Assembly: GCA_036507075.1 (NCBI GenBank)
Contig: DASXQR010000152.1
Location: 64,001 to 128,000, forward strand
Source: Acidobacteriota bacterium
GTDB taxonomy: Bacteria > Acidobacteriota > UBA6911 > JACQSX01
Direction of reading: 5' to 3'
DNA length: 64,000 nt
Every line of letters begins with the position of its first letter. Position 1 is the stretch's first letter. Positions 17,056 to 38,863 of this stretch are shown here, piece after piece. A program made the position numbers and the translations under genes. Below the pieces are notes generated by a model that saw only the letters and a list, made by a program, of their open reading frames with translations, was not told where the DNA came from and made no database searches.

Positions 17056-17331
17056 ATGAATCACCACAAAGACACAAAGATCACAAAGGATCAAGCTAAC
17101 CTTATGTCGAATCGTGTTCTCGGGGCGGCCATCGAAGTCCATCGTCTCCTTGGGCCGGGATTGCTGGAATCGACTTACGAGGCTTGTCTGTGCAGGGAGC
17201 TTTCTGTCCGCGGGATTCAATTCCACCGGCAAGTACCGCTGCCAGTGGTTTACAAGGATGTGAAACCGGACTGCGGGTACCGGATTGACCTGTTAGTTGA
17301 GAATTTACTTATCTTTGTGTCTTTGTGGTGA
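17056..17331 (+). pseudogene. C-terminally truncated GxxExxY family protein bracketed by a 21-bp inverted repeat
   Basis: GAAIEVHRLLGPGLLESTYEACL...GYRIDLLVEN; the ORF ends at 91 aa inside the repeat, before the usual ELK motif. Confidence 0.85.
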
Positions 17332-23663: not shown

Positions 23664-26093
23664 ATGGCACTGGCGTCGCGTCTTAGATTTCTGGCTGTTT
23701 TCTCCTGTCTTGCTCTGCTTTTAATCATTGTCAACCCCTCCTCGTCCAGCAAGCGACAGACGGAGGCGTCCCGAAGGCCTGGTTCGTTGAAACCAGAACC
23801 CCATAGGTTGCAACCGGAGCCGAACCGAGACACATCACCCATCAAAACCTTAAAGGGGGGCAAGATGCGGCGTGACCGCCAGGATCAGCGGCTGCGTCGT
23901 CTGAGAGGACGCGATACCGATTCCCTTCACCCCTCTGCGCCCTCGGCGGTAAAAGGAATCCGGCGCGGGGCTGCCGTTATTATGGAAGGCCTCCCGGTCT
24001 CGTTTGAAAAGAACGAAGACCAGGCCGAGCCGAGTGCACTCTATGTGGGAAGAATCGGAAGTCAGTCGGTCTTCGTCGAGACCGATCGAGTGAGGCTGAA
24101 GATCTACACGGTGAACTCACCACAAAGACACAAAGGACACAAAGGCGTTCGTGATCTTGGCGCCTTTGTGGTGAATGAAACCTCAGAAGTAGTACTCCGC
24201 TTCCTGAATTCGAATCCCGACGCCAAACTGACCGCCGAAGACCCGCTTCCCGGCAAAAGCAATTACCTGTTCGGCAACGACCCATCCCATTGGAAAACCA
24301 ACGTCCCGCAATACGCCAGGATCCGCTACAAGCAGATCTATCCGGGAATCGACCTGGTCTTCTACGGCCACAACCAGCAACTCGAATACGATTTGGTCGT
24401 TTCACCCGGAGCGGACCCGAATGTAGTGAAGATGGAGTTCGTCGAAAATAGCGCGGGGGAGCGGGAGAGCGGGAGAGCGGGAGAACTGAGATCGAAAATT
24501 GGAAATCGCAAATCGAAACTCCAGATCAGCGACGAGGGTGACTTGATCCTGGCCACGCCGGCCGGCGAAATTCGCCAACTGAAGCCGAAGATTTACCAGG
24601 AAGTGAATGGCTTCAAGTTCCCGGTGCCGGGAAGATACGTTTTATCCACCACAGAGATACAAAGAGCAATCGGCAATCCGCAATCGGCAATCCGCAATTC
24701 ACTCGACATTCGACACTCGTCACTTGTCACTTTCCAGATCGACTCCTATGACCGAACCAAGCCGCTGGTGATTGATCCCAAGGTGGTCACCCCGATTGAC
24801 ATACCGGGCAGTGGCAACCAACAGATCCAGGGGATTGCCGCCGACGCTCAGGGGAACTGGTATTTGACCGGTTCGACCGATTCAACCAACTTTGCCACGC
24901 GCAATCCAGTCCAATCGACCCGTGCCGGCGATTTTGATGCGTTTGTGATGAAGCTCAGCCCGGATGGGAAAACGATCCTTTATTCGACCTACCTGGGTGG
25001 TACCAAGCCGGATACCGGATACGGGGTTGCCGTCGATTCTGCCGGTAGCGCTTACGTTGTCGGCATGACCGATTCTACCGATTTCCCCACGCGCAATCCC
25101 ATTCAGTCGGCATATGCCGGACCCGCGAATCCATTTACTTTTGCGGGCGACAGTTTCGTTGCCAAGCTGAGTCCAGAAGGCTCGTCGCTGGTTTACTCCA
25201 CATATCTGGGAGGCTCGCAGGATGAAACCCGCCCCGGTATTGCGGTCGATTCATCCGGAAATGTGTATGTCGCAGGCGGTACCAGCTCGACGAATTTTCC
25301 CACCCGCAATGCGCTGCAAAGCACGATGACGCCCGCCGGCGCGACGGGGACTTTCTTTCAAGCAGGATTTATTTCGAAACTGAACGCCAGCGGCTCAGCT
25401 TTGGTGTATTCGACTTTCTTGGGTGGGGGGACAAGAATCAATGGAATGGCCATTGATTCGACAGGCAATGTCTACGTGATGGGCAATGCCGGCACGATCC
25501 CTTCGCCCAGCGGATTTCAGCGTACGCCCGGCGGAGGCGGTGATGCGTTCGTTGTAAAAGTGAACAGCGCAGGTTCTGCCGTGGTGTATTCGACTTATCT
25601 TGGCGGCAGCGGATTGGAACAGGGTTGGGCCATTGCGGTTGACGCCTCAGGAAACGCCCATGTGACTGGTTCGACACAGTCGACCAATTTCCCCACGGTC
25701 AATCCATTTCAGCCCAGCAACGGAGGCAACGGTGATACTTTTGTTACTAAACTGAACCCCGCCGGCACGGCGCTCGTTTATTCTTCCTATCTTGGCGGCT
25801 CGCAAGCTGACGACGGCAAAGGGATCGCCCTCGACACCACCGGCCGTGCGACGGTCGCGGGCACAACGCGATCAACAAATTTCCCGGTCAAAGACGCAAC
25901 TCAAACGACGCTGGGCGGAGGGAGCGACATCTTTGTAATTCGACTTTCCACAGCCGGCTCTTTAGAGTTTTCGACTTACATAGGCCGCACAGCCAACGAA
26001 TATACCAACGCTGTCGCGGTTGGATCGACGAGTGCCAAAAAAACGGGTGGGGATGGAATACGATACGTCGATGAACCTGCCAGTCCAACCTGA
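23664..26093 (+). CDS. Secreted SBBP beta-propeller repeat protein; N-terminal part of an interrupted gene
   Basis: Signal peptide, YPGIDLVFYG, LVIDP, repeated LVYSTYLGG / IAVDSSGNAYV / STNFPT. Confidence 0.88.
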   Translation: MALASRLRFLAVFSCLALLLIIVNPSSSSKRQTEASRRPGSLKPEPHRLQPEPNRDTSPIKTLKGGKMRRDRQDQRLRRLRGRDTDSLHPSAPSAVKGIRRGAAVIMEGLPVSFEKNEDQAEPSALYVGRIGSQSVFVETDRVRLKIYTVNSPQRHKGHKGVRDLGAFVVNETSEVVLRFLNSNPDAKLTAEDPLPGKSNYLFGNDPSHWKTNVPQYARIRYKQIYPGIDLVFYGHNQQLEYDLVVSPGADPNVVKMEFVENSAGERESGRAGELRSKIGNRKSKLQISDEGDLILATPAGEIRQLKPKIYQEVNGFKFPVPGRYVLSTTEIQRAIGNPQSAIRNSLDIRHSSLVTFQIDSYDRTKPLVIDPKVVTPIDIPGSGNQQIQGIAADAQGNWYLTGSTDSTNFATRNPVQSTRAGDFDAFVMKLSPDGKTILYSTYLGGTKPDTGYGVAVDSAGSAYVVGMTDSTDFPTRNPIQSAYAGPANPFTFAGDSFVAKLSPEGSSLVYSTYLGGSQDETRPGIAVDSSGNVYVAGGTSSTNFPTRNALQSTMTPAGATGTFFQAGFISKLNASGSALVYSTFLGGGTRINGMAIDSTGNVYVMGNAGTIPSPSGFQRTPGGGGDAFVVKVNSAGSAVVYSTYLGGSGLEQGWAIAVDASGNAHVTGSTQSTNFPTVNPFQPSNGGNGDTFVTKLNPAGTALVYSSYLGGSQADDGKGIALDTTGRATVAGTTRSTNFPVKDATQTTLGGGSDIFVIRLSTAGSLEFSTYIGRTANEYTNAVAVGSTSAKKTGGDGIRYVDEPASPT

Positions 26094-26141: not shown

Positions 26142-28946
26142 ATGGACTGTATATTCGAAATTACATTCCCGCCGCCGACTGAAATCTTCGAAGTCGACAA
26201 CTGTATCAAGATCCTGAAGAAGGATGGTCATCTCATCGATGGACACGCGTCGCGACATGCGAGCGATGCAGCCGGCCGTGGCTATAAGGTAGTGCCGGAG
26301 AGGAGCATCTTCACCAAGATCAACGAAGCGTTTGAGTTCACTGCGAAAACAGAGGACCTAACCGGTCACAAGCTGGACTTTGAACCGGGTGACAGCGTTC
26401 TACTTAATCCGCTGCCGTGCCAGTATAAAGAAAACGTTGTTTTTCCCGCTGCTAATTCGGGCGGAGCTCTCCGAGATAATGCTCTCATCGGTTCAGGGAT
26501 GGAGAACACAATCATCGAAGACGAAGGGCAGCCGCTCATTGTACTGAATCCTTCGGCCAGGCTCGAGGCCTTTACGATGGGTGCAAGTGCGCCGGAGTTG
26601 GGGATTCGATTCTTCGGTCAGGGTGGGGATCAGGCGCTTATGTCTAAGGTCAGAATATCGCAGGCTGGCCTGGGCATTAGAGACCGAAAGGATATAGTGA
26701 TCTCTGATTCACGATTCATCAATTCACAAGCGGGCGCGATTGGTATCGACGGTGCGGCGTCGTCATCCATCGTAATAGATAACGTATCGATTGACGGCGG
26801 CCGTGGAATTTATGTAAAGGACGTCCAGCCGGCCAGCGGCACTGGTCTGGTGATCAACAAAGTCACGCTGCAAACCCCAGCGGAGGTCGGGAAAATTACA
26901 AACTCACGCGTCAACATCACGGATCTAAACGCCAACTTATATGTGGAAGGTTTGACCATCGAGCAGAGTACCGGTGGAATATCAAAAAGCAACTTTGTAA
27001 AGGCTCAGAATTTTGCTGACTCCGTTGGGCTGAGTTTGCTTAACAACGGTAGTTTCACAGTCGGACCTGGTGTCGCCTTCATAGGCGAACCAAGAATACC
27101 TGTATCCGGTGAGGGCATATACTTCACAAACGGCGCAGCCTTGGTGATTGCCGGAAATTCCATAAGTCAATATCTTTTGGGTATCGATGGATTCGTCAGT
27201 CAAAACGCCGAGTTAGCCAAGAAAGTACTTCTGGAGAGAAATGCAATAAAGGGCAACAGTATCGGCGTACGAATAGCCGTAAGCGGCTTTCAGCCGGCGG
27301 GCTCGACAAAGAGCCGCGAATTTGGCTTCCCCAACGTCGCAGGCGCCGGTTCTCCACTTGTGCTCCAGAATAATTCCATCTTCGGTAACTTACAGTTCGG
27401 TGTCCGCATCGAAAATCGGAATACGGACCTGGGAGGTGGCTCATTCGGGAGTACAGGAGGTAACATCCTCTCGGCCAACGGTCAACTGGATCTGACTAAC
27501 GAATCTGGCGGTCGCATCTCGGCCAAGAACAACGTCTGGTCCAGTGCTGATCCGAATGAGATTCTAAGCAGGTATGTCACTCCTGGTGCAGGGATCGACG
27601 TCGCTCCAGTCATGCCTGTACAGTCGAAGTACTTTGCTCAATTCGTCGAGTTGTCCGGCTTTACATCCAAGGCAACCCTGACCAATTCGTCGCGTACCAA
27701 TGGCGCTGCGGCATTACTTGCTTTTCGGAATTCTGCCGGTGTAGCGCAGAATGTACCACTTAACGGCAGCGACAGCGTTAACGGGCTGCAGCCCGGGGCT
27801 GTCGCCGCGCTTGGAGCAGCTTCGTTTGCAACTAGCGCGGCAACGACGGCTGTCAATGTCGGCTCGCTCACTGTCGCCTCTGGCCGTCCGCTTGCCGGGA
27901 CTGTACTGTTTTCCGGCCCTTCGGGTGTTGCCGGAGTAGGCGCGTCTGAATTGCTTACTCAGTTCATCGCTCCTGTGGAAAGAAACACTGCCAAGTCCGT
28001 GAACTCCGGCGTCGCAATCACCAATCCGAATACGACGACGGCGGTTGGTGTCCAACTGCGGCTGCGCGAGAATTCTACTGGCCAGATTCGGCAGGCGACG
28101 CTGCAGCTTGCGGCCGGCGGTCAGGCGGCTAAATTTATCGATGAGTTGTTTTTAGGATTGCCCAACGACTTCGTCGGCACATTAATCGCCGCTGCGCCGA
28201 CACAGATTGCCGCAACCATCATTCGCACCAGTCCTGGCCAATTTGCCACATTGCCGGTGACCGGCGCCGGAGTGAAGAAGCTTCTCTTCGCACAGTTCGG
28301 CGAGGTGACGGGTGTCAGCTCGACACTCACCTTTGTGAATCCTTCCACGGACAAAACGGCCAACGTGACGGTGAAACTCTATGACGACAACGGCGCCCCG
28401 CTCACTGTAAATCTGGGCGGTCAGGATCGGGCCGGGCAGTTTAACTTTAATGTGTCGCCGCAGAGTTCCGTCAGCTTCAGTTCTCCGGGAACGAGTGCTG
28501 CGGCCAAAGTTGGGTCCGTAGTTGTCGATTCGACTGAAAACATCGGGGGCACGATTCTGTTTGGCGGTGCATTTGGATTGGCAGGAGTGGGCGCAAGCCA
28601 GGCACTTTCAAACTTTATTGCGCCGGTTGAGCAAAGCGCCACAGGCAACGTGACCATCGGCGTGGCGCTGATGAACCTCGGCACGGCCGAAGTTACGGTT
28701 CGTCTGACGCTGCGCGATGAATCCGGTACGCCGCTCAGCAACGGCACCGTCGATGTAAAGCTGAAAGGTCTGGGCCACGATGCCAAATTTATCGCCCAGC
28801 ATTTCTCTAACCTGGATCTGAAAGATTTCCGGGGGACGATCACCGGAGAAGTCATAGGCCAGGGCCAGATCGGCGCCACGGTGATCCGACAGTCAGGCGC
28901 GCCGCTGGAATTCGCGACGCTGCCGGTAGCGGAGATTATCCCTTAA
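26142..28946 (+). CDS. Beta-helix plus repeated beta-sandwich surface protein ('gene A'); same frame as the upstream SBBP ORF
   Basis: Beta-helix-like region then two YFAQF / GVAIxN repeats; no signal peptide; only one TGA separates it from 23664..26093. Confidence 0.8.
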   Translation: MDCIFEITFPPPTEIFEVDNCIKILKKDGHLIDGHASRHASDAAGRGYKVVPERSIFTKINEAFEFTAKTEDLTGHKLDFEPGDSVLLNPLPCQYKENVVFPAANSGGALRDNALIGSGMENTIIEDEGQPLIVLNPSARLEAFTMGASAPELGIRFFGQGGDQALMSKVRISQAGLGIRDRKDIVISDSRFINSQAGAIGIDGAASSSIVIDNVSIDGGRGIYVKDVQPASGTGLVINKVTLQTPAEVGKITNSRVNITDLNANLYVEGLTIEQSTGGISKSNFVKAQNFADSVGLSLLNNGSFTVGPGVAFIGEPRIPVSGEGIYFTNGAALVIAGNSISQYLLGIDGFVSQNAELAKKVLLERNAIKGNSIGVRIAVSGFQPAGSTKSREFGFPNVAGAGSPLVLQNNSIFGNLQFGVRIENRNTDLGGGSFGSTGGNILSANGQLDLTNESGGRISAKNNVWSSADPNEILSRYVTPGAGIDVAPVMPVQSKYFAQFVELSGFTSKATLTNSSRTNGAAALLAFRNSAGVAQNVPLNGSDSVNGLQPGAVAALGAASFATSAATTAVNVGSLTVASGRPLAGTVLFSGPSGVAGVGASELLTQFIAPVERNTAKSVNSGVAITNPNTTTAVGVQLRLRENSTGQIRQATLQLAAGGQAAKFIDELFLGLPNDFVGTLIAAAPTQIAATIIRTSPGQFATLPVTGAGVKKLLFAQFGEVTGVSSTLTFVNPSTDKTANVTVKLYDDNGAPLTVNLGGQDRAGQFNFNVSPQSSVSFSSPGTSAAAKVGSVVVDSTENIGGTILFGGAFGLAGVGASQALSNFIAPVEQSATGNVTIGVALMNLGTAEVTVRLTLRDESGTPLSNGTVDVKLKGLGHDAKFIAQHFSNLDLKDFRGTITGEVIGQGQIGATVIRQSGAPLEFATLPVAEIIP

Positions 28947-29189
28947 CCAGTGCATCTGAGTCCAAGCCTCCTGAGCGTGGCCTGCTGTTCCAAAACCAAT
29001 TCACGGAGCGGCCTGCCCGTTAATTTGCAAATATTCGTGATGCGCGGCGAAACCTCCGCGAGCGATGGGGGAATGGCAGGTTTGCAGTTCTTGTTCCAGA
29101 AGATCGAAGGCCAGGCTCCGTTGTTGTCGCACCACGCGTGGCATTAGGTTTATACTCATGCGCGCGGTTTTTCGGGGCCGTTGGTTGAT

Positions 29190-29510
29190 CTTGATACACC
29201 GCCCGCCGATCGAATCCAGTGACATTACAGTCACCGCGACTTCCTTGCGCGCCCTTCAGGTCTATGCGCCGAAATCACAGCGGGCCGACTATGTGAAGCC
29301 GCGGGAATGCCGGTTACCGATCAAGTCTATCGACGCGGGATCCGCTTTCTTCTGAACACCCAGCTCGAAGACGGGTCCTGGTATGTCCGTTCCCGTTCCA
29401 TGCCTTTCCAGCCCTTTTTTGAAAGCGGATTCCCCCACGGACATGACCAGTGGATTTCCGCAGCCGCCAGCAACTGGGCCACCATGGCGCTGGCGCCGGC
29501 AGCGCGATAA
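29190..29510 (+). pseudogene. 3' remnant of a prenyltransferase/squalene-oxidase-repeat protein
   Basis: HRPPIESSDITVTATSLRAL, then a frame change to RGIRFLLNTQLEDGSWYVRSR...ESGFPHGHDQWIS; no start. Confidence 0.7.
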
Positions 29511-29612
29511 GCCTTGAGGCTGCCGGGCCAATGTGCGGGCATTCAAGGCCATCGTTCCACCTCCTTGCCAGAGTGATTGCAGCTTCATCTGATATCGTTA
29601 TATGATGACGGT

Positions 29613-29843
29613 ATGCGGACCATCATTGACCTCCCGGAAGACCAGATTGAGGCGCTCGACGAGTGGTGCCGGCGAAAGAAGATCTCTCGCGCCGAGGCGA
29701 TTCGCCAGGCGGTTGCCCAGCTTTTACCGCGCCACAAGTCGAGCTGGCGAAATCATCCTGCCGTGGGCTTGTGGAAGGGACAAAAAAGGCGGGCCGATTC
29801 GGTCGAATACGTCCGCCGCGTTCGGAAAGAGTGGCAGCGGTGA
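29613..29843 (+). CDS. CopG/RHH antitoxin (VapB-like)
   Basis: MRTIIDLPEDQ...ISRAEAIRQAV; GTGA overlap with the PIN gene. Confidence 0.88.
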   Translation: MRTIIDLPEDQIEALDEWCRRKKISRAEAIRQAVAQLLPRHKSSWRNHPAVGLWKGQKRRADSVEYVRRVRKEWQR

Positions 29844-30205
29844 AAGCGCTGTTCGATTCGAACATTGTAATTGACGCGCTCAAGGCCATTCCGCTCGCTT
29901 TTGAGGAACTCGAGCGGTACGAGGAATGTCTGATCAGCCGCATCACATGGATCGAAATTCTTGCCGGAGCGGAGTCAATGCTCGAAGAGCAGGCATTTCG
30001 GGATTATCTGAAAAAATTCAGCATCCGCGAATTGGATGGACCGGTCAGCGAACGCGTCATCAGCCTGCGTCGGAAATACAAATTGAAGATCCCCGACGCG
30101 ATTATCTGGGCAACAGCCGAGCACGAAGGCTGTATCCTGGTCACGCGCAACACGAAAGATTATCCCAAAGACCTTCCGGGGATCCGGTTCCCGTATAGGC
30201 TATAA
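29840..30205 (+). CDS. vapC: PIN-domain VapC toxin
   Basis: LFDSNIVID, ITWIEIL, KIPDAIIWATA, LVTRNTKDY. Confidence 0.92.
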   Translation: MKALFDSNIVIDALKAIPLAFEELERYEECLISRITWIEILAGAESMLEEQAFRDYLKKFSIRELDGPVSERVISLRRKYKLKIPDAIIWATAEHEGCILVTRNTKDYPKDLPGIRFPYRL

Positions 30206-30249
30206 CGCCGGGAAAAGAAAATGTTGCGGACTTTGGCGCATAACCGCGG

Positions 30250-30340
30250 TTAGTGCCGCGCAGACTGCATTTCGATGACTCGAATCCGGTGCTTGAGGTG
30301 GTGGATCTGGCGCCGGACCTCGTGCAGCTTTGTGTGGTCG
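30250..30340 (-). pseudogene. Recoded duplicate of the last 29 codons plus stop of gene 32090..32422
   Basis: Encodes DHTKLHEVRRQIHHLKHRIRVIEMQSARH*; 12 differences in 91 nt by manual alignment, 10 of them synonymous. Confidence 0.92.
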
Positions 30341-30575
30341 GGTAAATGGGGGACAGTCCCCTTTGGGTGGTAAATGGGGGACAGTCCCCTTTTTTCAGTC
30401 AATGGGGGACAGTCCCCTTTGGGTGGTAAATGGGGGACAGTCCCCTTTTTTCAGTCAAATGGGGACAGTCCCCTTTTTTCGGTCCCTTTTTTCGAGGGTC
30501 GATTTGAAACTCTGGTAAATGTAATACGGTTCTGTCCCCACATCCCCAATAGGTGTCTGTCCCCACATCCCCACG
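30341..30575. repeat. Five tandem AATGGGG(G)ACAGTCCCCTTT palindromes plus two CTGTCCCCACATCCCC copies
   Basis: Read directly. Confidence 0.92.
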
Positions 30576-30584
30576 TCGATCCGC

Positions 30585-31010
30585 GTAGTCGACTCCACGG
30601 AAAACATCGGCGGGACGATATTGTTCGGCGGTAGTTTCGGACTGGCTGGAGCGGGAGCAAGCCAGGCGCTCTCAAATTTCATTGCACCGGTCGAGCAGAG
30701 CACCACCGGTAATGTGACGATCGGGGTGGCGCTGATGAACCTCGGCACGGCTGAAGTGACCGTCCGGCTGACACTGCGCGATGAATCGGGCACACCGCTG
30801 ACCAACGGCACCGTCGATGTGAAGCTGAAAGGCCTTGGCCACGACGCCAAATTCATCGCCCAGCATTTCCCGAATCTGGATCTGAAGGATTTTCGCGGCA
30901 CAATAACCGGAGAAGTGGTAGGCCAGGGCCAGATTGGCGCCACCGTGATAAGGCAGTCTGGCGCGCCCCTTGAGTTTGCGACCTTGCCGGTGGCAGAGAT
31001 TATTCCATAA
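30585..31010 (+). pseudogene. Recoded duplicate of the last 142 codons (28521..28946) of gene A
   Basis: Colinear, no indels; 6 amino-acid changes and about 60 synonymous codon changes by manual count. Confidence 0.95.
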
Positions 31011-31118
31011 GAATAACTCACCACAGAGGCACAGCCCGGCAAAGCCGCAACCACACGCGTCATCATCATTGTGCCTTTTGCACGCGAAGCAACGTTTCCT
31101 TCCGGCTTTTGTTCCGCT

Positions 31119-31649
31119 TCATTTCTTTTCCGGTCCGATGACGTCTTCGACGGATCGCCGGAAGGAAGCAGGGCTGATAGATGGATAGCGGTATAGTTGC
31201 GGCTCGATTTGCGAAAAGAACCGCCATGTTTCATCCGGCTCGATTAAGCCGCGCCGGATCATCTCGCGCACGTCGGCCAGATCCTGATCGTGACTGCGTT
31301 CAATTTTTGCAAGAGCCTGGGAATACAGGTCGTAGTGATAAAAGGAAATCTTCCCTTCACGGGCGATGAAGACACTCCGGTCTTGCCATCCAGGAAGCTC
31401 CGGAATGAAGTCGGCGGGCCAGGCCAGCTCCACGTTGATTTGCAGCGTCTCCTTCAATTTGGGAATCGCTCGCAGCAACAAGTCATGTTCCGGGATAAAG
31501 CGTACGTCGACGTCGATAGTCGCCTGGCGCCATCCAAGCAGAACAGCAGTTGCACCTCCGGTCAGATAGAAACGGGTTTCCTGCTGCGTTTCAAGTGCGA
31601 TGGCACGCAGGAAACGCCAGATCCGGTCTGCATCCGCTATCTGGCGCAT
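31119..31649 (-). CDS. Nucleotidyltransferase-like protein (DUF6036-like)
   Basis: YLTGGATAVL...RQATIDVD (GG...DxD), LAKIERSHDQDLAD. Confidence 0.78.
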   Translation of the reverse strand: MRQIADADRIWRFLRAIALETQQETRFYLTGGATAVLLGWRQATIDVDVRFIPEHDLLLRAIPKLKETLQINVELAWPADFIPELPGWQDRSVFIAREGKISFYHYDLYSQALAKIERSHDQDLADVREMIRRGLIEPDETWRFFSQIEPQLYRYPSISPASFRRSVEDVIGPEKK

Positions 31650-31912
31650 TCCGCTGCACGTTCGAAGCTTACCAGGCGGCGAATCAGGGCATTGTAACGG
31701 GAGTGTGCGCCATCGGGATCGGATTCGGCAAGCTTGCGATACAGCCGTTGCTCCGGCAAGGAAATGGTCGAATTCGGCAGCGAGAAACCGAGCCTTCTAA
31801 GCCTGGGCGCGCCGATAGAGACGAGCAGCGCAGGAATGGTTTCAACGCCCCTGTACAGGTCCTCGATGCCAGCCTGCACCAGTTCATTCCCCGGAAGCTG
31901 GTCTGTCCGCAT
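31637..31912 (-). CDS. Small hypothetical protein coupled to the nucleotidyltransferase gene
   Basis: 91 aa, overlaps the downstream start; AHSRYNALIRRLVSFERA helix. Confidence 0.72.
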   Translation of the reverse strand: MRTDQLPGNELVQAGIEDLYRGVETIPALLVSIGAPRLRRLGFSLPNSTISLPEQRLYRKLAESDPDGAHSRYNALIRRLVSFERAAECAR

Positions 31913-32089
31913 TCGCTTTATGTTAACACGGCCGGCTAAATCGATCTGCAGCCATCAGTGCCCGCGCTTCAGCCCCAGACGGACCGCCAGGCGCGCCGCG
32001 GGCTGACGCCGCCGCGGTACTGACGCTGGACAGATAGCACAAAGATCTTTGTGTTCTTCGTGTCTTTGTGGTGCATAACTTCGGTTTCG

Positions 32090-32422
32090 TCAGTGCCGCG
32101 CCGATTGCATTTCAATTACGCGGATGCGGTGCTTGAGATGGTGGATCTGGCGCCGGATTTCATGCAGCTTTGTGTGGTCGTGAGCCTGGACCAGACCGTC
32201 GCGCTGCGTCTTCAACTGGTGGATCTGATGCTTCAGCTCGGACTTGGTGTGGACCACGTTGTCGGAAAAATGCACGTGGGGCTTTTCAATTCCCAGGGCA
32301 TGGGCCAGCTCGTCCATCAGTTGCTCTTTGTGCTTCCCGTGCACAGCCTCAATCTGGGGAAACTTCAGCGCCTCTTCGCGCAGCTTTACAACAGTCATCT
32401 TTTCCAAATCTTTCCATTCCAT
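32090..32422 (-). CDS. Hypothetical His-rich helical protein with Rho-N/HeH-like N-terminus ('gene B')
   Basis: LEKMTVVKLRE...KEQL; GGGGG RBS; synonymous conservation against its duplicate supports coding. Confidence 0.8.
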   Translation of the reverse strand: MEWKDLEKMTVVKLREEALKFPQIEAVHGKHKEQLMDELAHALGIEKPHVHFSDNVVHTKSELKHQIHQLKTQRDGLVQAHDHTKLHEIRRQIHHLKHRIRVIEMQSARH

Positions 32423-32504
32423 ACAGAACCCCCTTATGGTTTGGTGAATCGGTGTTGAACTGTGGATTACGGAATCTATAAGGCGGATTATATTCCCACT
32501 CTGA

Positions 32505-32566
32505 TTCACCACAAAGACACAAAGGACACAAAATCAAAATTTGTGTCTTTGTGCCTTTGTGGTTTT
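32505..32566. repeat. CACCACAAAGACACAAAG inverted-repeat element with ~8 bp spacer
   Basis: Read directly; may also act as a terminator after gltD. Confidence 0.85.
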
Positions 32567-32567
32567 T

Positions 32568-34016
32568 TTAGTTGAGCGGGGCCGGGAGTTCGGAGTTTCC
32601 CATCAGGAACTGGTCGACGCCGCGGGCGGCCGATCGGCCTTCGGCGATGGCCCAGACAATCAGCGACTGGCCGCGCTGCATGTCGCCGCACACGAATACG
32701 CCGGGCACGCTGGTCATCCAGTTTTTGTCGCGCCACACGTTGCTTCGTTCCGTAAGCCGCACGCCCAGTTCCTCGAGCAATCCGTTGCGCTCCGGCCCGA
32801 TGAAACCCATGGCCAGCAGCACCAGCTCCGCATCGAGGATGAATTCGCTGCCGGGAATCGCGCGGAAGCCGACATTTCCATTCTCGCGAACCATTTCGGC
32901 CTTGACTGCTTCGAGCTGCCGGACTCTGCCGTCTCCGTCTCCGATAAATCGCTGCGTCGAAACCGAGTAAACCCGCTCGCCGCCCTCTTCATGCGCCCCG
33001 GAAACACGAAAAATGTTGGGCCACTGAGGCCACGGGTTGTCGATGCCGCGCGTATCGGGAGGCCGCGACAACAGTTCGAATTGATGAACTGAGCGGGCCT
33101 TCTGGCGATGCACCGTGCCCAGACAGTCGGCTCCCGTGTCGCCGCCGCCGATGATCACCACGCGTTTCCCTTCGGCGCTGACGAAATCTGAATCCGGAAC
33201 ATAGTCTCCTTCGCAGCGGCGATTCTGGAGCGTCAGGTAATCCATGGCGAAATGAATGCCCTGGAGCTCGCGGCCCGGAATTTTCAAGTCGCGCGGCCAG
33301 CGGGCCCCGCCGGCCAGCACCACGGCGTCATAGTCAGACTTCAACTGCGCGGCCGGCAGCGTCACACCCACATTTACACCGGTGCGAAACTCCACGCCTT
33401 CTTCCTGCATGATGCGCAGTCGCCGGTCCAGGAATCGTTTTTCCATCTTGAATTCCGGGATACCGTAGCGCAGCAGGCCGCCGATTCGATCGTCGCGCTC
33501 GTAAACGGTGACATGGTGCCCGGCGCGGTTCAACTGCTCGGCTGCGGCCAGGCCGGCCGGACCTGAACCGACCACGGCCACCCTCTTCCCGGTGCCCACC
33601 GCCGGGGGTTTCGCAGCGATCCATCCCTCGTCGAAAGCCCGTTCTATGATCGACAGCTCCACGCCCTTGATTGTGACCGGATCATCGCTGATTCCGAGAA
33701 CGCACGACCCCTCGCAGGGAGCAGGACAGAGGCGACCCGTCCATTCAGGAAAATTGTTTGTGGCGTGCAGACGGTCAATGGCTTCGCGCCAGTGATCGCG
33801 GTAAACCAGATCATTAAAATCGGGGATGATGTTCCCGAGCGGGCAACCCTCGTGGCAGAAAGGAATGCCACAATCCATGCAGCGGGCCGCCTGCATCTGC
33901 AGTTCTTCCTTCGGATAAGGAAGATAAACCTCCTGCCAGTCGCGAACGCGCTCCTGCACCGGCCGCGCCGGAGGCTTCTTGCGCTTGATCTCAATAAAGC
34001 CCGTAATTTTACCCAC
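32568..34016 (-). CDS. gltD: Glutamate synthase small subunit
   Basis: [43 protein letters not shown]. Confidence 0.97.
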
Positions 34017-37000
34017 CGCCGGCACCCACCAGTTCTTCAAAGGTGGCTTCGCGCTGTTCGGCGCGCGCCCGCGCTTCTGCCTGAAGGACCCGCTTGTAGT
34101 CTCTGGGCATGACTTTAATGAACTGTTTTTGCATCGAAATCCAGTTGGTCAGGATTCCGGCGGCATAGCCGGACTGTGTTGCGTCGAAGTGTCGCGCAAT
34201 CAGGTCGCGCACCGTTTCGATGTCTTCCGGCTGATCCAGCGGTCCCAGGTCGACCATTCCCAGATTGCAGCGCTGCGCAAACTTGCCTTCGCGGTCGAGC
34301 ACGTAGGCGATCCCTCCGCTCATCCCGGCGGCGAAATTGCGTCCCGTCCTGCCCAGCACAACCACCCGTCCGCCGGTCATGTATTCGCAGCCGTGGTCGC
34401 CCACTCCCTCAACCACGGTCAGCGCGCCGCTGTTGCGCACGGCGAATCTTTCGCCTGCAACGCCCCGCACAAAAGCTTCACCGCTGGTGGCGCCGTAGAG
34501 CGCCACGTTGCCGATGACGATGTTTTCTTCCGGAACGAAAGTTGAACCCCGGGGCGGATAAACCACCAGCTTCCCGCCGGACAATCCCTTCCCCCAGTAG
34601 TCATTGGAGTCGCCTTCCAGCGTGAGCGAAATCCCTTTCGGCAGGAACGCGCCGAAGCTCTGTCCGGCCGAGCCGTTAAAATGAATGCGAATCGTGTCGT
34701 CGGGAAGACCCGCGCCGCCCCAGCGCGAAGTGAGCTCGTATCCCAGCATGGTCCCCACAGTACGATTCACATTTCGAATGGGAAGCGAGAACCGGATCGG
34801 CTTTTTGTAAAGCAAAGCCTGCTTGCAGCGGGAAATCAATGCGTTATCCAGCGCCTTTTCAAGCCCGTGGTCCTGAGCGCGCACGCGTCGCCGCGCAACC
34901 GACGGCGGCATATCCGGCTGGTGGAGTATCGAGGAATAGTCCAGCCCTTTGGCCTTCCAATGGTCCAGGGCCGGCTTGAAATCGAGTCGATCGACCCGGC
35001 CGATCATTTCATCCATAGTCCGAAATCCCAGCCGTGCCATCCGCTCGCGCACTTCTTCGGCGATGAAGCGGAAAAAATTCTCCACAAACTCAGGCTTGCC
35101 GTTGAAAAGCTTGCGCAGTTCCGGATCCTGCGTGGCCACTCCGACAGGGCAGGTGTTCAAGTGGCAAACACGCATCATTACGCATCCCAGCACCACCAGA
35201 GGAGCAGTGGAAAAACCGAATTCTTCAGCACCCAGCAAAGCGGCGATCACCACATCGCGCCCGGTCTTCATCTGCCCGTCCACCTGAACCACGATGCGGT
35301 CGCGCAGTTTGTTCATCACCAGCACCTGCTGCGTTTCCGCCACACCCAGCTCCCACGGTATGCCGCCGTGCTTGATGCTGGTCAGAGGCGATGCTCCGGT
35401 GCCTCCGTCGTGCCCGGAGATCAGCACCACATCGGAATGAGCCTTCGCCACGCCTGCGGCAACGGTTCCCACACCCATTTCCGCCACCAGCTTTACGTGC
35501 ACGCGCGCTTTCGGATTGGCGTTTTTCAAGTCGTGGATCAGTTGCGCGATGTCTTCAATGGAATAAATGTCGTGGTGCGGAGGCGGTGAAATCAGCCCTA
35601 CACCGGGCGTGGCATAACGGACTTTGGCGATCCAGGGATAAACCTTATGTCCCGGAAGCTGCCCGCCTTCGCCGGGTTTGGCGCCCTGCGCCATTTTGAT
35701 CTGAAGATCATCGGCATTAACGAGATATTCGCTGGTTACCCCGAAACGCGCCGAGGCGACCTGCTTGATGGCGCTGCGCCGCCAGTCTCCATTTCGGTCC
35801 CGCTTATACCGAGCCGGGTCTTCTCCTCCTTCGCCGGTGTTGGATTTGCCGCCCATGCGATTCATGGCGATGGCCAGAGTCTCATGCGCCTCGGCGCTGA
35901 TCGAGCCGTAGGACATGGCTCCGGTTGCAAAGCGCTTGATGATGGACTCGATGGGCTCTACTTCCTCAATGGGGACCGGCGCGGCCGCCTCTTTCAGTTC
36001 AAAAAGGCCGCGCAGGGTGGCCAGACGGCGGTTCTGATCGTCCACCAGACCGGTGTATTCCTTGAAGATCTTATATTGTCCCGAGCGCGTCGCGTGCTGC
36101 AGCTTGAAGACAGTTTCAGGATTGAATAGATGGAACTCGCCGTCGCGCCTCCATTGGTACTCTCCGCCCCACTCCAGCTCCGGCTCGCTCACCGGGCGCG
36201 GCGAGAAGGCGCGCTCGTGACGGCGGCGCCCTTCCTCGGCGACGATATCAATACCGATTCCTTCCACGCGCGAGGGCGTCCAGGTGAAATAGCGGTCGAT
36301 AAATTCCTTGTTCAATCCGATGGCCTCAAAAATCTGGGCGCCGCAATAGCTCTGCAGCGTGGAGATGCCCATCTTGGACATCACTTTCAAAATTCCCTTG
36401 TTTAGCGACTTGATATAGTTTTTGACCGCCTTCTTATGGTCGATGCCGGGCAGCAGTCCCTGGCGAATCATGTCATCCAGGGATTCAAACGCCACCCACG
36501 GATTGACTGCGCCCGCTCCATAGCCGATCAGCAGAGACACGTGGTGCACTTCGCGCGCATCTCCGGTTTCGATCACCAGCGCGCAGCGCGTGCGCGTGCC
36601 TTCACGAACCAGGTGATGATGGATGGCCGCCGTCGCGAGCAAACTTGGAATGGGCGCACATTCTTCGTTCACGCCGCGATCGCTGAGAATCAGGATGTTG
36701 TGTCCTTGTGCGATCGCCTGGCTGGCCCGCGCCTGCAGGGTTTCAATGGCATCGCCCAGTGCTTCACCGCCGCCGTTTACACGGTAGAGCATGGGTAGGG
36801 TATAAGCCCTGAACGCATCGAGCGGACTCTCACTCTCCCTCTCTCCCTCTCTCCCTCTCTCCCGCTCTCCATCCCTCCGTCCCTCCGTCCCTCCGTCTCC
36901 CCTTTCCCCAACCCCAAGGTGCTTAATCTTGGCCAGCTCGTCATTATCAATGATGGGATACTTGACCTTGATCTGGCGGCAGGATTCCGGCTGCGCTTCG

Positions 37001-38667
37001 AGCAGGTTGCCCTCCGGTCCGATGGTGCTTTCCATGGTGGTCACCAATTCTTCGCGAATCGCATCCAGCGGAGGATTGGTCACCTGGGCAAAGAGCTGCT
37101 TGAAGTAGTCGTAAAGCAGCCGCGGGCGATCGGATAGAACCGCCAGCGCAGTGTCGGTTCCCATCGAGCCGATCGGCTCTTCTCCCGCCTGGGCCATGGG
37201 GCCGAGCAGGATACGCAGATCTTCGTGGGTATAGCCGAAAACCAATTGCCGCGTCAGTACCGTTTCGTGGTCCGGCGCCGGCACAGGATGGGCGGGAACA
37301 TCTTCCAGGCTGATCAGATTCTTAGACAGCCATTCGCCGTAGGGGCGTTCTGCGGCAAGTTGAGATTTGATTTCGTCATCGGAAATGATTCTTCCCTGCG
37401 ACGTGTCCACCAGAAAGATGCGCCCGGGGTGCAGTCTTTCTTTGATCAGAATATTTTCCGCCGGAATGTCCAGCACTCCCACTTCGGACGCCATGATTAC
37501 CATGTCGTCCCGGGTGACGTAGTATCGGGAGGGTCGCAGGCCGTTGCGATCCAGCACTGCGCCGATAACGGTTCCATCGGTGAAGGCAATGGAGGCCGGC
37601 CCGTCCCAGGGCTCCATCAGGGAGGAATGATACTCATAGAAGGCCTTCCGCTCTGCCGGCATGCTTTCATTGCCGCCCCAGGGTTCCGGAATCATCATCA
37701 ATATGGCATGCGGCAGGCTGCGGCCGTTCATCACCAAAAACTCGAGCACGTTGTCAAAGATGGCCGAGTCGCTTCCCCCTTCGCGGATTACCGGAAAAAC
37801 TTTGTGCAGGTCTTCGCCCAGCAGATCCGACCGGCACAGAGCCTGGCGCGCCCGCATCCAGTTGATATTTCCACGCAGCGTATTGATCTCGCCGTTGTGG
37901 GCGATGTATCGGTACGGGTGGGCCAGCGGCCAGGACGGGAATGTGTTTGTGCTGAAGCGCTGATGGACCAGAGCCAGCGCCGATTCCATGTCGGGATCGG
38001 CCAGATCCGGATACATGGATTCGATCTGGGTGGCCGTGAGCATTCCCTTGTAGATGAGCGTGCTGGACGACAGGCTGGGAATATAGAAGAGCTTCCTCTC
38101 GGAAAGGGGGAGCGCGTCGGCGGCATTCTCAATCCGCTTGCGGATCACATAGAGCTTGCGCTCGAAGTGTGCCTGGTCCTTCAACCCGGCGCCCCGGCCG
38201 ATAAACATCTGCCTCATCTTAGGCTCGACGGCCCGGGCCGACTCACCCAACAGGTGATCATCAGCAGGCACATCGCGCCAGCCCAGGAACTGCTGGCCCT
38301 CTTCGACCGTGATCCTTGAAATCAGTTCCTCAAGCAACTGCCTCTGGGCCTGGTCGCGGGGAAGGAAAACAAAGCCCACACCGTAGTCCTTTGACGGAGG
38401 CAGAGGAATATCCAGCCGGGCGCACTCGCGCCGCAAAAACCTGTCCGGAACCTGCATCAGTATGCCGGCGCCGTCGCCCGTATTGACCTCGCAGCCGCAG
38501 GCGCCGCGATGCACCAGGTTGATGAGCACCTGGAGAGCCTGGCGGATGATGGTGTGGGATTTTACTCCCTTGATGTTCACCACAAATCCCACTCCGCACG
38601 CATCGTGCTCGAACCAGGGATCGTACAGACCCTGTGCCGGTGGCGGTCCCGCTGCAAGCTGCCTCAT
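34009..38667 (-). CDS. gltB: Glutamate synthase large subunit
   Basis: [49 protein letters not shown]. Confidence 0.98.
36826..36911. repeat. 8-bp-period pyrimidine-rich repeat (CTCTCTCC/GTCCCTCC) in frame in gltB
   Basis: Encodes [28 protein letters not shown]. Confidence 0.85.
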
Positions 38668-38863
38668 GAATTCCTCCCGAACCTGATTGCAAGGGATGAT
38701 ACCTAAACTTCTTCCATTCGCAATACGCAATGTTTGCATAGTATTCATGAGTAAAACGCATGGAAGCCGTGAACGCGGGAAAAGACTTCACGATGGCAGC
38801 CAAACTCGCGGGCTATCATGCTAGGTTGCCCCTACGATTTTCTGATATCATATTTTGTTTTGC

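Follow-up and report, generated by a model that had tools for sequence, protein, structure and literature searches.

How does a slot between two genes come to hold two different cargoes, each bordered by ends of the same two genes, while both genes are left whole? The question is raised by a locus of an Acidobacteriota bacterium (assembly GCA_036507075.1, contig DASXQR010000152.1), located in the 64,000-nucleotide stretch analysed here (positions 64,001 to 128,000 of the contig, hereafter the window). Two convergent genes, A and B, enclose two cargoes and orphan copies of their own 3' ends (A' and B'), in the order A > cargo 1 < B' / J / A' > cargo 2 < B, where J is an array of palindromic repeats. 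This order, first described in an earlier note made from the letters alone, is borne out by the gene calls in the window (Table 1). Two orthologous units, each composed of an A end, a cargo and a B end, follow one another in direct orientation and are linked by the 244 bases of J. The cargoes differ, being a ribbon-helix-helix (RHH)/PIN pair in unit 1 and a nucleotidyltransferase pair in unit 2. Direct repeats of the target flank both inserts, with A and A' around cargo 1 plus J, and B' and B around J plus cargo 2, and both host genes are whole. We propose that DNA of two sister lineages probably recombined once at this variable slot, the incoming version adding to the resident one, and that the locus is the resulting scar; it appears to be built from known processes and a known class of repeats, and does not look like a new self-moving element.

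The gene ends differ from their orphan copies almost exclusively at synonymous positions. The A end and A' align without gaps over 142 codons with 82.9% identity; 63 codons differ synonymously and 6 non-synonymously, and third positions account for 62 of the 73 base changes. The Nei-Gojobori estimates are 1.14 synonymous (dS) and 0.024 non-synonymous (dN) substitutions per site, with dN/dS = 0.02 (Fisher p 2e-38). Between the B end (32090-32179) and B', 30 codons harbour 10 synonymous changes, one I/V replacement and a TGA/TAA swap (dS 0.86, dN 0.015, dN/dS 0.02, Fisher p 4e-7), and weak similarity runs on for ~16 bases beyond the stop. The earlier note had described both copies correctly, counting about 60 synonymous changes in the A pair. 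Outgroup polarisation assigned three of the six A/A' amino acid changes to A and two to A', with one ambiguous, and thus the orphan A' shows no excess decay. A' and B' are parts of genes that were working under purifying selection until recently and, judging from their sequences, the two versions of each gene most likely came from two lineages, as the note had supposed. A public full-length protein, P0068, is 90% identical to B and ends like B', with identity over 29 residues.

Table 1. Features of the A/B locus, in window coordinates
Feature	Coordinates	Strand	Description
Gene A	26142..28946	+	934 aa, beta-helix region and repeated C-terminal domain common in the family; intact
A 3' end, partner of A'	28521..28946	+	Codons 794-934 plus stop
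Third-gene 3' remnant in cargo 1	29146..29510	+	Decayed; frameshift, ~75 codons deleted
Cargo 1 RHH antitoxin, VapB-like	29613..29843	+	Pfam RHH_1
Cargo 1 PIN-domain toxin, VapC-like	29840..30205	+	Pfam PIN
B'	30250..30339	-	Orphan copy, gene B codons 82-110 plus stop
Junction J	30341-30584		Five GGGGACAGTCCCC units (30349-30473) facing two inverted variants (~30530-30572)
A'	30585..31010	+	Orphan copy, final 142 codons of gene A; frame open, unbroken
Cargo 2 DUF6036 nucleotidyltransferase	31119..31649	-	Pfam
Cargo 2 partner	31637..31912	-	91 aa, no family; putative antitoxin
Gene B	32090..32422	-	Conserved 110-aa protein, no Pfam family; intact, downstream of gltD

The earlier note held that its reading would fall if the fragments belonged to separate full-length paralogs. 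Within this genome, no further copy of the A domain exceeds 46% identity, five other genomes of the order offer none above 47%, and gene B has no other match in the genome; we therefore rejected a paralog origin for both A' and B'. It is, in our view, extremely improbable that a local duplication arose long ago and that its fragments have been retained as small working genes. A' does contain a 129-codon open frame starting at a TTG, which gene callers annotate. However, the synonymous-only divergence reaches upstream of this only annotated start, with seven synonymous and no amino acid changes in the preceding 12 codons. B' encodes just 29 residues in a frame that begins inside the repeat, and the sole promoter-like site in 28900-32600 is upstream of neither fragment, which is a weak test.

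The layout might also be an artefact, namely an assembly in which two strains were fused at the repeat array; the earlier note had raised a strain chimera, which we consider very unlikely. The genome (6.1 Mb, 233 contigs, 95.7% complete) has 1.98% contamination, and the sequencing runs that contain the window are soil metagenomes. Named homologues of its proteins suggest an origin in Acidobacteriota. Read support was judged from the assembled contigs of these runs, ~90% of X1 and 76% of X2 having been read and 32 of ~1,600 pieces listed; runs X4 and X5 hold small shares of the window. In X1, contig depth is 12.9 for A, 13.3 for cargo 1 plus B' and 10.3 for cargo 2 plus B. A' is almost uncovered (depth 0.5-4), and no contig among the listed pieces bridges 30374-31022, from J to A', as a chimera would have it. 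Given the shares of X1 and X2 that were read and of the pieces listed, this hole was not counted as absence of A'. Moreover, X1 contains 0.97 of the sampled words of 28000-33000, leaving too little room for a missing A', which makes up 8.5% of that stretch, and A' thus appears to be present. The B'/J join lies within single contigs of X1, X2 and X3, with at least 31 bases on each side, and the X2 contig differs from the window at three sites, indicating another strain. In a further source, the longest contig is 7,873 bases for each of three proteins, those of the A end, of A' and of the PIN toxin, and presumably this is a single contig. Finally, a strain bubble would not produce genes cut at a repeat. 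Neither a circle nor a collapsed joint was found in the contigs among the 15 joints listed of 37.

If the locus is natural, an additive event between sister lineages could have proceeded as follows. The host would have carried A > cargo 2 < B and the donor A > cargo 1 < B. The incoming DNA, probably unit 1 (the A end, the VapBC cargo and B') from a relative, would have paired with the chromosome on one side only. The second homologous crossover, which would replace the resident cargo, would have failed in the face of 13-17% divergence and of only 90 bases of B. By a linear route, a homologous crossover would have taken place in or upstream of A, and the free end of the donor DNA, ending at B codon 82, would have been joined illegitimately to codon 794 of host A, whose 5' part would have been lost. 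By a circular route, the fragment would have been trimmed, closed into a circle and inserted by one crossover. The earlier note had favoured the latter; its single-crossover circle fits the layout, but it is one of two published routes (PMC3240628), and no circle is required since one crossover plus one illegitimate join of linear DNA yields the same arrangement with both genes whole. The repeat array would mark a fragile join site or have settled there later. The flanking repeats of unit 2 are typical of this genome, a weak hint that unit 2 may be the resident allele.

This scheme resembles homology-facilitated illegitimate recombination (HFIR) and its trimmed-circle by-product (PMC3240628). 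HFIR has been described in three competent species, and both routes were observed in E. coli, the circle being ~10 times commoner and generating gene-end duplications of 109-950 bases, compared with 90 and 426 bases here (PMC3240628). The proposed scheme would share with HFIR the entry through one-sided homology with no integrase. In contrast, the homology of the laboratory constructs is identical and their joins carry 0-10 bases of microhomology (PMC3240628), whereas the homologous parts of the A/B locus are only 83-87% identical, its unit has a gene end on either side and the join includes a 244-base array. The genome encodes DNA-uptake and RecA-loading proteins of the ComEC (on contig C100) and DprA (on C110) families, of which presence alone was scored.

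The scheme would also account for persistence. In B. subtilis, the limit is described as 15-17% divergence, and the minimum quoted for RecA-mediated transformation is 25-35 bases (PMC6382021). The longest identical tract shared by A and A' is 26 bases, and thus both entry and collapse should be rare, 26 bases and 15-17% divergence being near the RecA limits. The duplicate would persist because its copies share no more than 26 identical bases and because collapse would delete the toxin-antitoxin pair; it is probably stabilised by the 17% divergence and by its toxin-antitoxin cargo. The similar dS values of the two fragments are in line with a single additive event, as are one-sided scars found in the same genome on contigs C46, C171, C212 and C224 (see below).

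Several observations weigh against this interpretation. A and A' have diverged by 17%, which is about as much as RecA exchange tolerates in B. subtilis (PMC6382021), and classical joins carry 0-10 bases of microhomology, whereas here a 244-base array touches both cuts; at most 3-10 bases would be expected of HFIR between B' and A', where this array lies. A candidate microhomology, a 10/11 likeness between B at the cut and the repeat spacer, was rejected as the join it predicts is not the one observed. No position can be assigned to the crossover, the longest run of identical codons between A and A' being eight (p 0.26), codon usage fails to separate host from donor, and neither identity runs nor outgroup comparison revealed a host/donor mosaic in the A/A' repeats. 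The valine of P0068 is also found in three of four more distant homologues, and this protein is thus no proof of a donor origin. Competence genes are present in 10 of 14 control genomes, and given that they are so widespread, ComEC and DprA do not demonstrate transformability. Lastly, neither a donor nor a single-unit allele was found in genomes that included none of the same genus (0 among 40 relatives). Gene A, gltD and the cargoes were not seen in any of 99 loci around homologues of B, many of them short, and these loci revealed no conserved A-B synteny. They harboured no orphan B end either, and one weak match to the 91-aa protein of cargo 2. The closest B relative among the 80 metagenome loci kept is 76% identical.

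What joined B' to A' is best approached through J itself. Its seven units fit GGGGWSAS, the motif of the repeats of tyrosine-transposase TIRtrons (PMC3733652, PMC6006769), and by sequence J belongs to this known class. It lies 1-2 bases from B' and ~12 bases from A', its two repeat sets face inward, and its predicted fold is better than those of 199 of 200 shuffled sequences (z -3.8). No integrase family was detected with Pfam among the 51 window proteins searched, which gave one DDE transposase 26 kb from the locus, and none of 15 integrase-family matches in the genome lies on this contig, in agreement with the earlier note. Genome-wide counts are approximate, the set of 4,961 genes having come from a crude caller script. 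An intact Y1 transposase gene (C163:36426-37109, 227 aa) has the same repeats on both sides; together with its GGGGACAG repeat clusters it forms a complete TIRtron-like unit (L112, C163:36096-37235).

It is conceivable, if rather unlikely, that an HUH tyrosine transposase acting in trans cut and joined single-stranded DNA near the GGGGACAG repeats, either closing a circle of A end, cargo and B end or linking incoming DNA to the chromosome, with RecA making the other crossover. The position of J, its fold and the transposase gene on C163 all speak for such an integrase-free system, as does an E. coli relative of the enzyme, which cuts single-stranded DNA away from its binding site with low specificity and performs strand transfer in vitro (PMC3333891). 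However, repeats are spread over this genome: GGGGACAGTCCCC has 70 exact sites, and 69% of the gaps of at least 100 bases (2021/2920) hold some high-copy repeat. The tandem pattern is rare in relatives, being found in 5 of 136 other genomes. A looser repeat pattern yielded 82 clusters, some of which are chance matches inside genes, and a single cluster, that of the A/B locus, lies beside a local recoded gene end, in a test blind to fragments of genes that the genome itself lacks. By the earlier note's own account, its reading would fall if no other locus paired recoded gene ends with this junction, and the scan gave no such locus. None of the other 3'-end scars has this array at its cut, the tag at C46 being a loose 8-base match, and no two-sided case was found in 60 toxin-antitoxin loci of relatives or in 30 loci of cargo 2. 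The dedicated integrase-independent system for stacking cargo that the note had proposed thus finds no support, its palindrome being a repeat of known class. A stretch beside one repeat cluster, C20:5421-5612, close to a contig end, shares 98% identity with a portion of a C61 gene.

The repeat at the join would also be explained if a longer or purely resident tandem duplication, with repeats at its join, came first and was followed by replacement of one allele or by trimming to the repeats. In the second step, the allele of a relative would enter by ordinary double crossover, or spare gene copies would be cut back by deletion. Transformation yields repeat-bordered duplications, as reported for Streptococcus pneumoniae (PMC3784515), and the five B' codons nearest J are identical to B, as the endpoint of a replacement would leave them. 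Yet five identical codons have a chance of ~0.08, estimated from 12 differing codons out of 30, A' is diverged from its first codon, and more events are required. An identical 2-kb tandem would moreover be expected to collapse quickly. We consider such a two-step history improbable. The S. pneumoniae merodiploids are like the A/B locus in that incoming DNA triggers a tandem duplication with a repeat at the join, but they span 100-900 kb, are identical and have two bordering copies of the repeat (PMC3784515), whereas the A/B locus is 2 kb long, with one junction and diverged units.

To return to additive recombination, we scanned all 233 contigs for other gene-end scars, in-frame repeats and full-length paralogs being set aside by inspection. 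Clear one-sided layouts, with a gene, a cargo and then a 3' fragment of the gene, were found at four loci, whose cut sites are unrelated. Their cargoes are Fic and DUF2283 on C46 (dS 0.23), ASPIC/UnbV on C171 (dS 0.37), ParE/Phd with HicAB behind the fragment on C212 (dS 0.86), and a nucleotidyltransferase/HEPN pair on C224 (dS 0). Four scars are weaker, on C83 (10 codons), C160, C193 and C225, the fragment being upstream in the last three, and C141 and C99 were also tagged. A second two-sided scar was not found in the genome, even when seven loci were rechecked at higher sensitivity. Toxin-antitoxin-type genes are present in three of the four clear scars, but such genes are common in this genome (39 PIN matches).

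These scars have features of their own. On C224 (L103, C224:1-2507), the 52-codon copy of the gene end starts a few codons past the HEPN stop, and ~180 bases downstream are repeated too; this scar is very recent. On C212 (L104, C212:10088-12917), the gene end is that of a helicase, its recoded copy has 33 codons, and the ParE/Phd and HicAB pairs are stacked behind them; parts of the start of the neighbouring gene are also duplicated nearby. A motif resembling a tRNA T-arm lies at the cut of the pfkB fragment on C171 (L106, C171:22768-22784), where no tRNA gene was found. Elsewhere, two tandem full-length pilin-like genes (C213:18339-19346) show 49 synonymous and three amino acid differences.

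In relatives, we sampled 60 toxin-antitoxin loci with long flanks, picked among the matches listed, from four of five genomes. None carries a two-sided scar, as in the control (0/99). Two of them deserve mention: L243 is a pair of toxin paralogs, and L191 (G002:C50:250548-254324) is plausibly an old one-sided scar, in which a PIN gene separates a gene from a recoded 45-codon copy of its end, 3.6 kb downstream. The gene itself may be a CRISPR-associated csb2. The idea that cargo 2 is a mobile unit carrying gene ends was rejected, as none of the 30 nucleotidyltransferase loci has such a scar; one of them (L119) harbours a pair of diverged paralog ends.

Some known systems share features with the A/B locus. 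Minimal mobile elements, reportedly defined by Saunders and Snyder in 2002, exchange by replacement, without leaving orphan gene ends; here, A' and B' are present. In Neisseria, these small alternative cassettes lie between two flanking genes and have no mobility gene of their own, but the alternatives occur across genomes, whereas here two alleles are stacked in one genome (PMC1797815). TIRtrons and TIRYT elements share with our genome the motif, clustered repeats, Acidobacteria hosts and a flanked Y1 transposase gene, located elsewhere here, but neither cargo capture nor gene-end duplication is reported in the accessible parts of their descriptions (PMC3733652, PMC6006769). There is, in addition, no transposase gene at the A/B locus. 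Some integrative elements replace gene ends. In the case of prophage e14 at icd, a synonymous end of foreign origin completes the host gene, and its former end persists as a fragment. The A/B locus is similar in this respect but differs by its lack of an integrase and of a conserved attachment core, by the involvement of two genes and by cut sites that vary between loci. We found no description of a two-sided gene-end layout in the literature searched, which misses most subscription journals and supplements.

As for the genes involved, the A orthologues P0001 and P0002 are 73-75% identical to A in the C-terminal part. In both, the product of the preceding SBBP beta-propeller gene (23664-26093) and that of gene A are a single fused protein, suggesting from this comparison that the two may be a split gene here. 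The third-gene remnant of cargo 1 resembles the terminal part of a C134 gene that encodes 742 aa, and NCBIfam VapC models score under their cut-offs with the PIN protein. In cargo 2, the nucleotidyltransferase has a weak AbiEii match (E 0.018) and relatives spread over several phyla. The 91-aa protein adjoins it in 23 of 30 other loci and is a putative antitoxin; such pairing across several phyla is what a mobile two-gene module would show. Intergenic-type repeats occur in frame within the SBBP gene (24117-24180 and 24460-24720) and within gltB (34009-38748, glutamate synthase), adding low-complexity peptides. A short PD-(D/E)XK (PDDEXK_3) gene fragment (17104-17328) adjoins an IMP dehydrogenase gene.

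On this reading, additive recombination has left a clean natural trace here, bridging a divergence of approximately one synonymous change per site; most of what is known of the process comes from laboratory strains. Taken with the four clear one-sided scars, the locus suggests that soil Acidobacteria acquire small cassettes in this manner, toxin-antitoxin pairs being frequent among them, and that such gains can be searched for by orphan gene ends with synonymous divergence. There is a small chance that a transposase acting in trans on single-stranded DNA supplied the join that let DNA of a sister species add to the slot rather than swap with its content. If so, these abundant repeats would gain a role in gene acquisition, which we did not find described in the literature searched, and repeat arrays and RecA would constitute an integrase-free route to stack toxin-antitoxin cassettes between conserved genes, both left whole.

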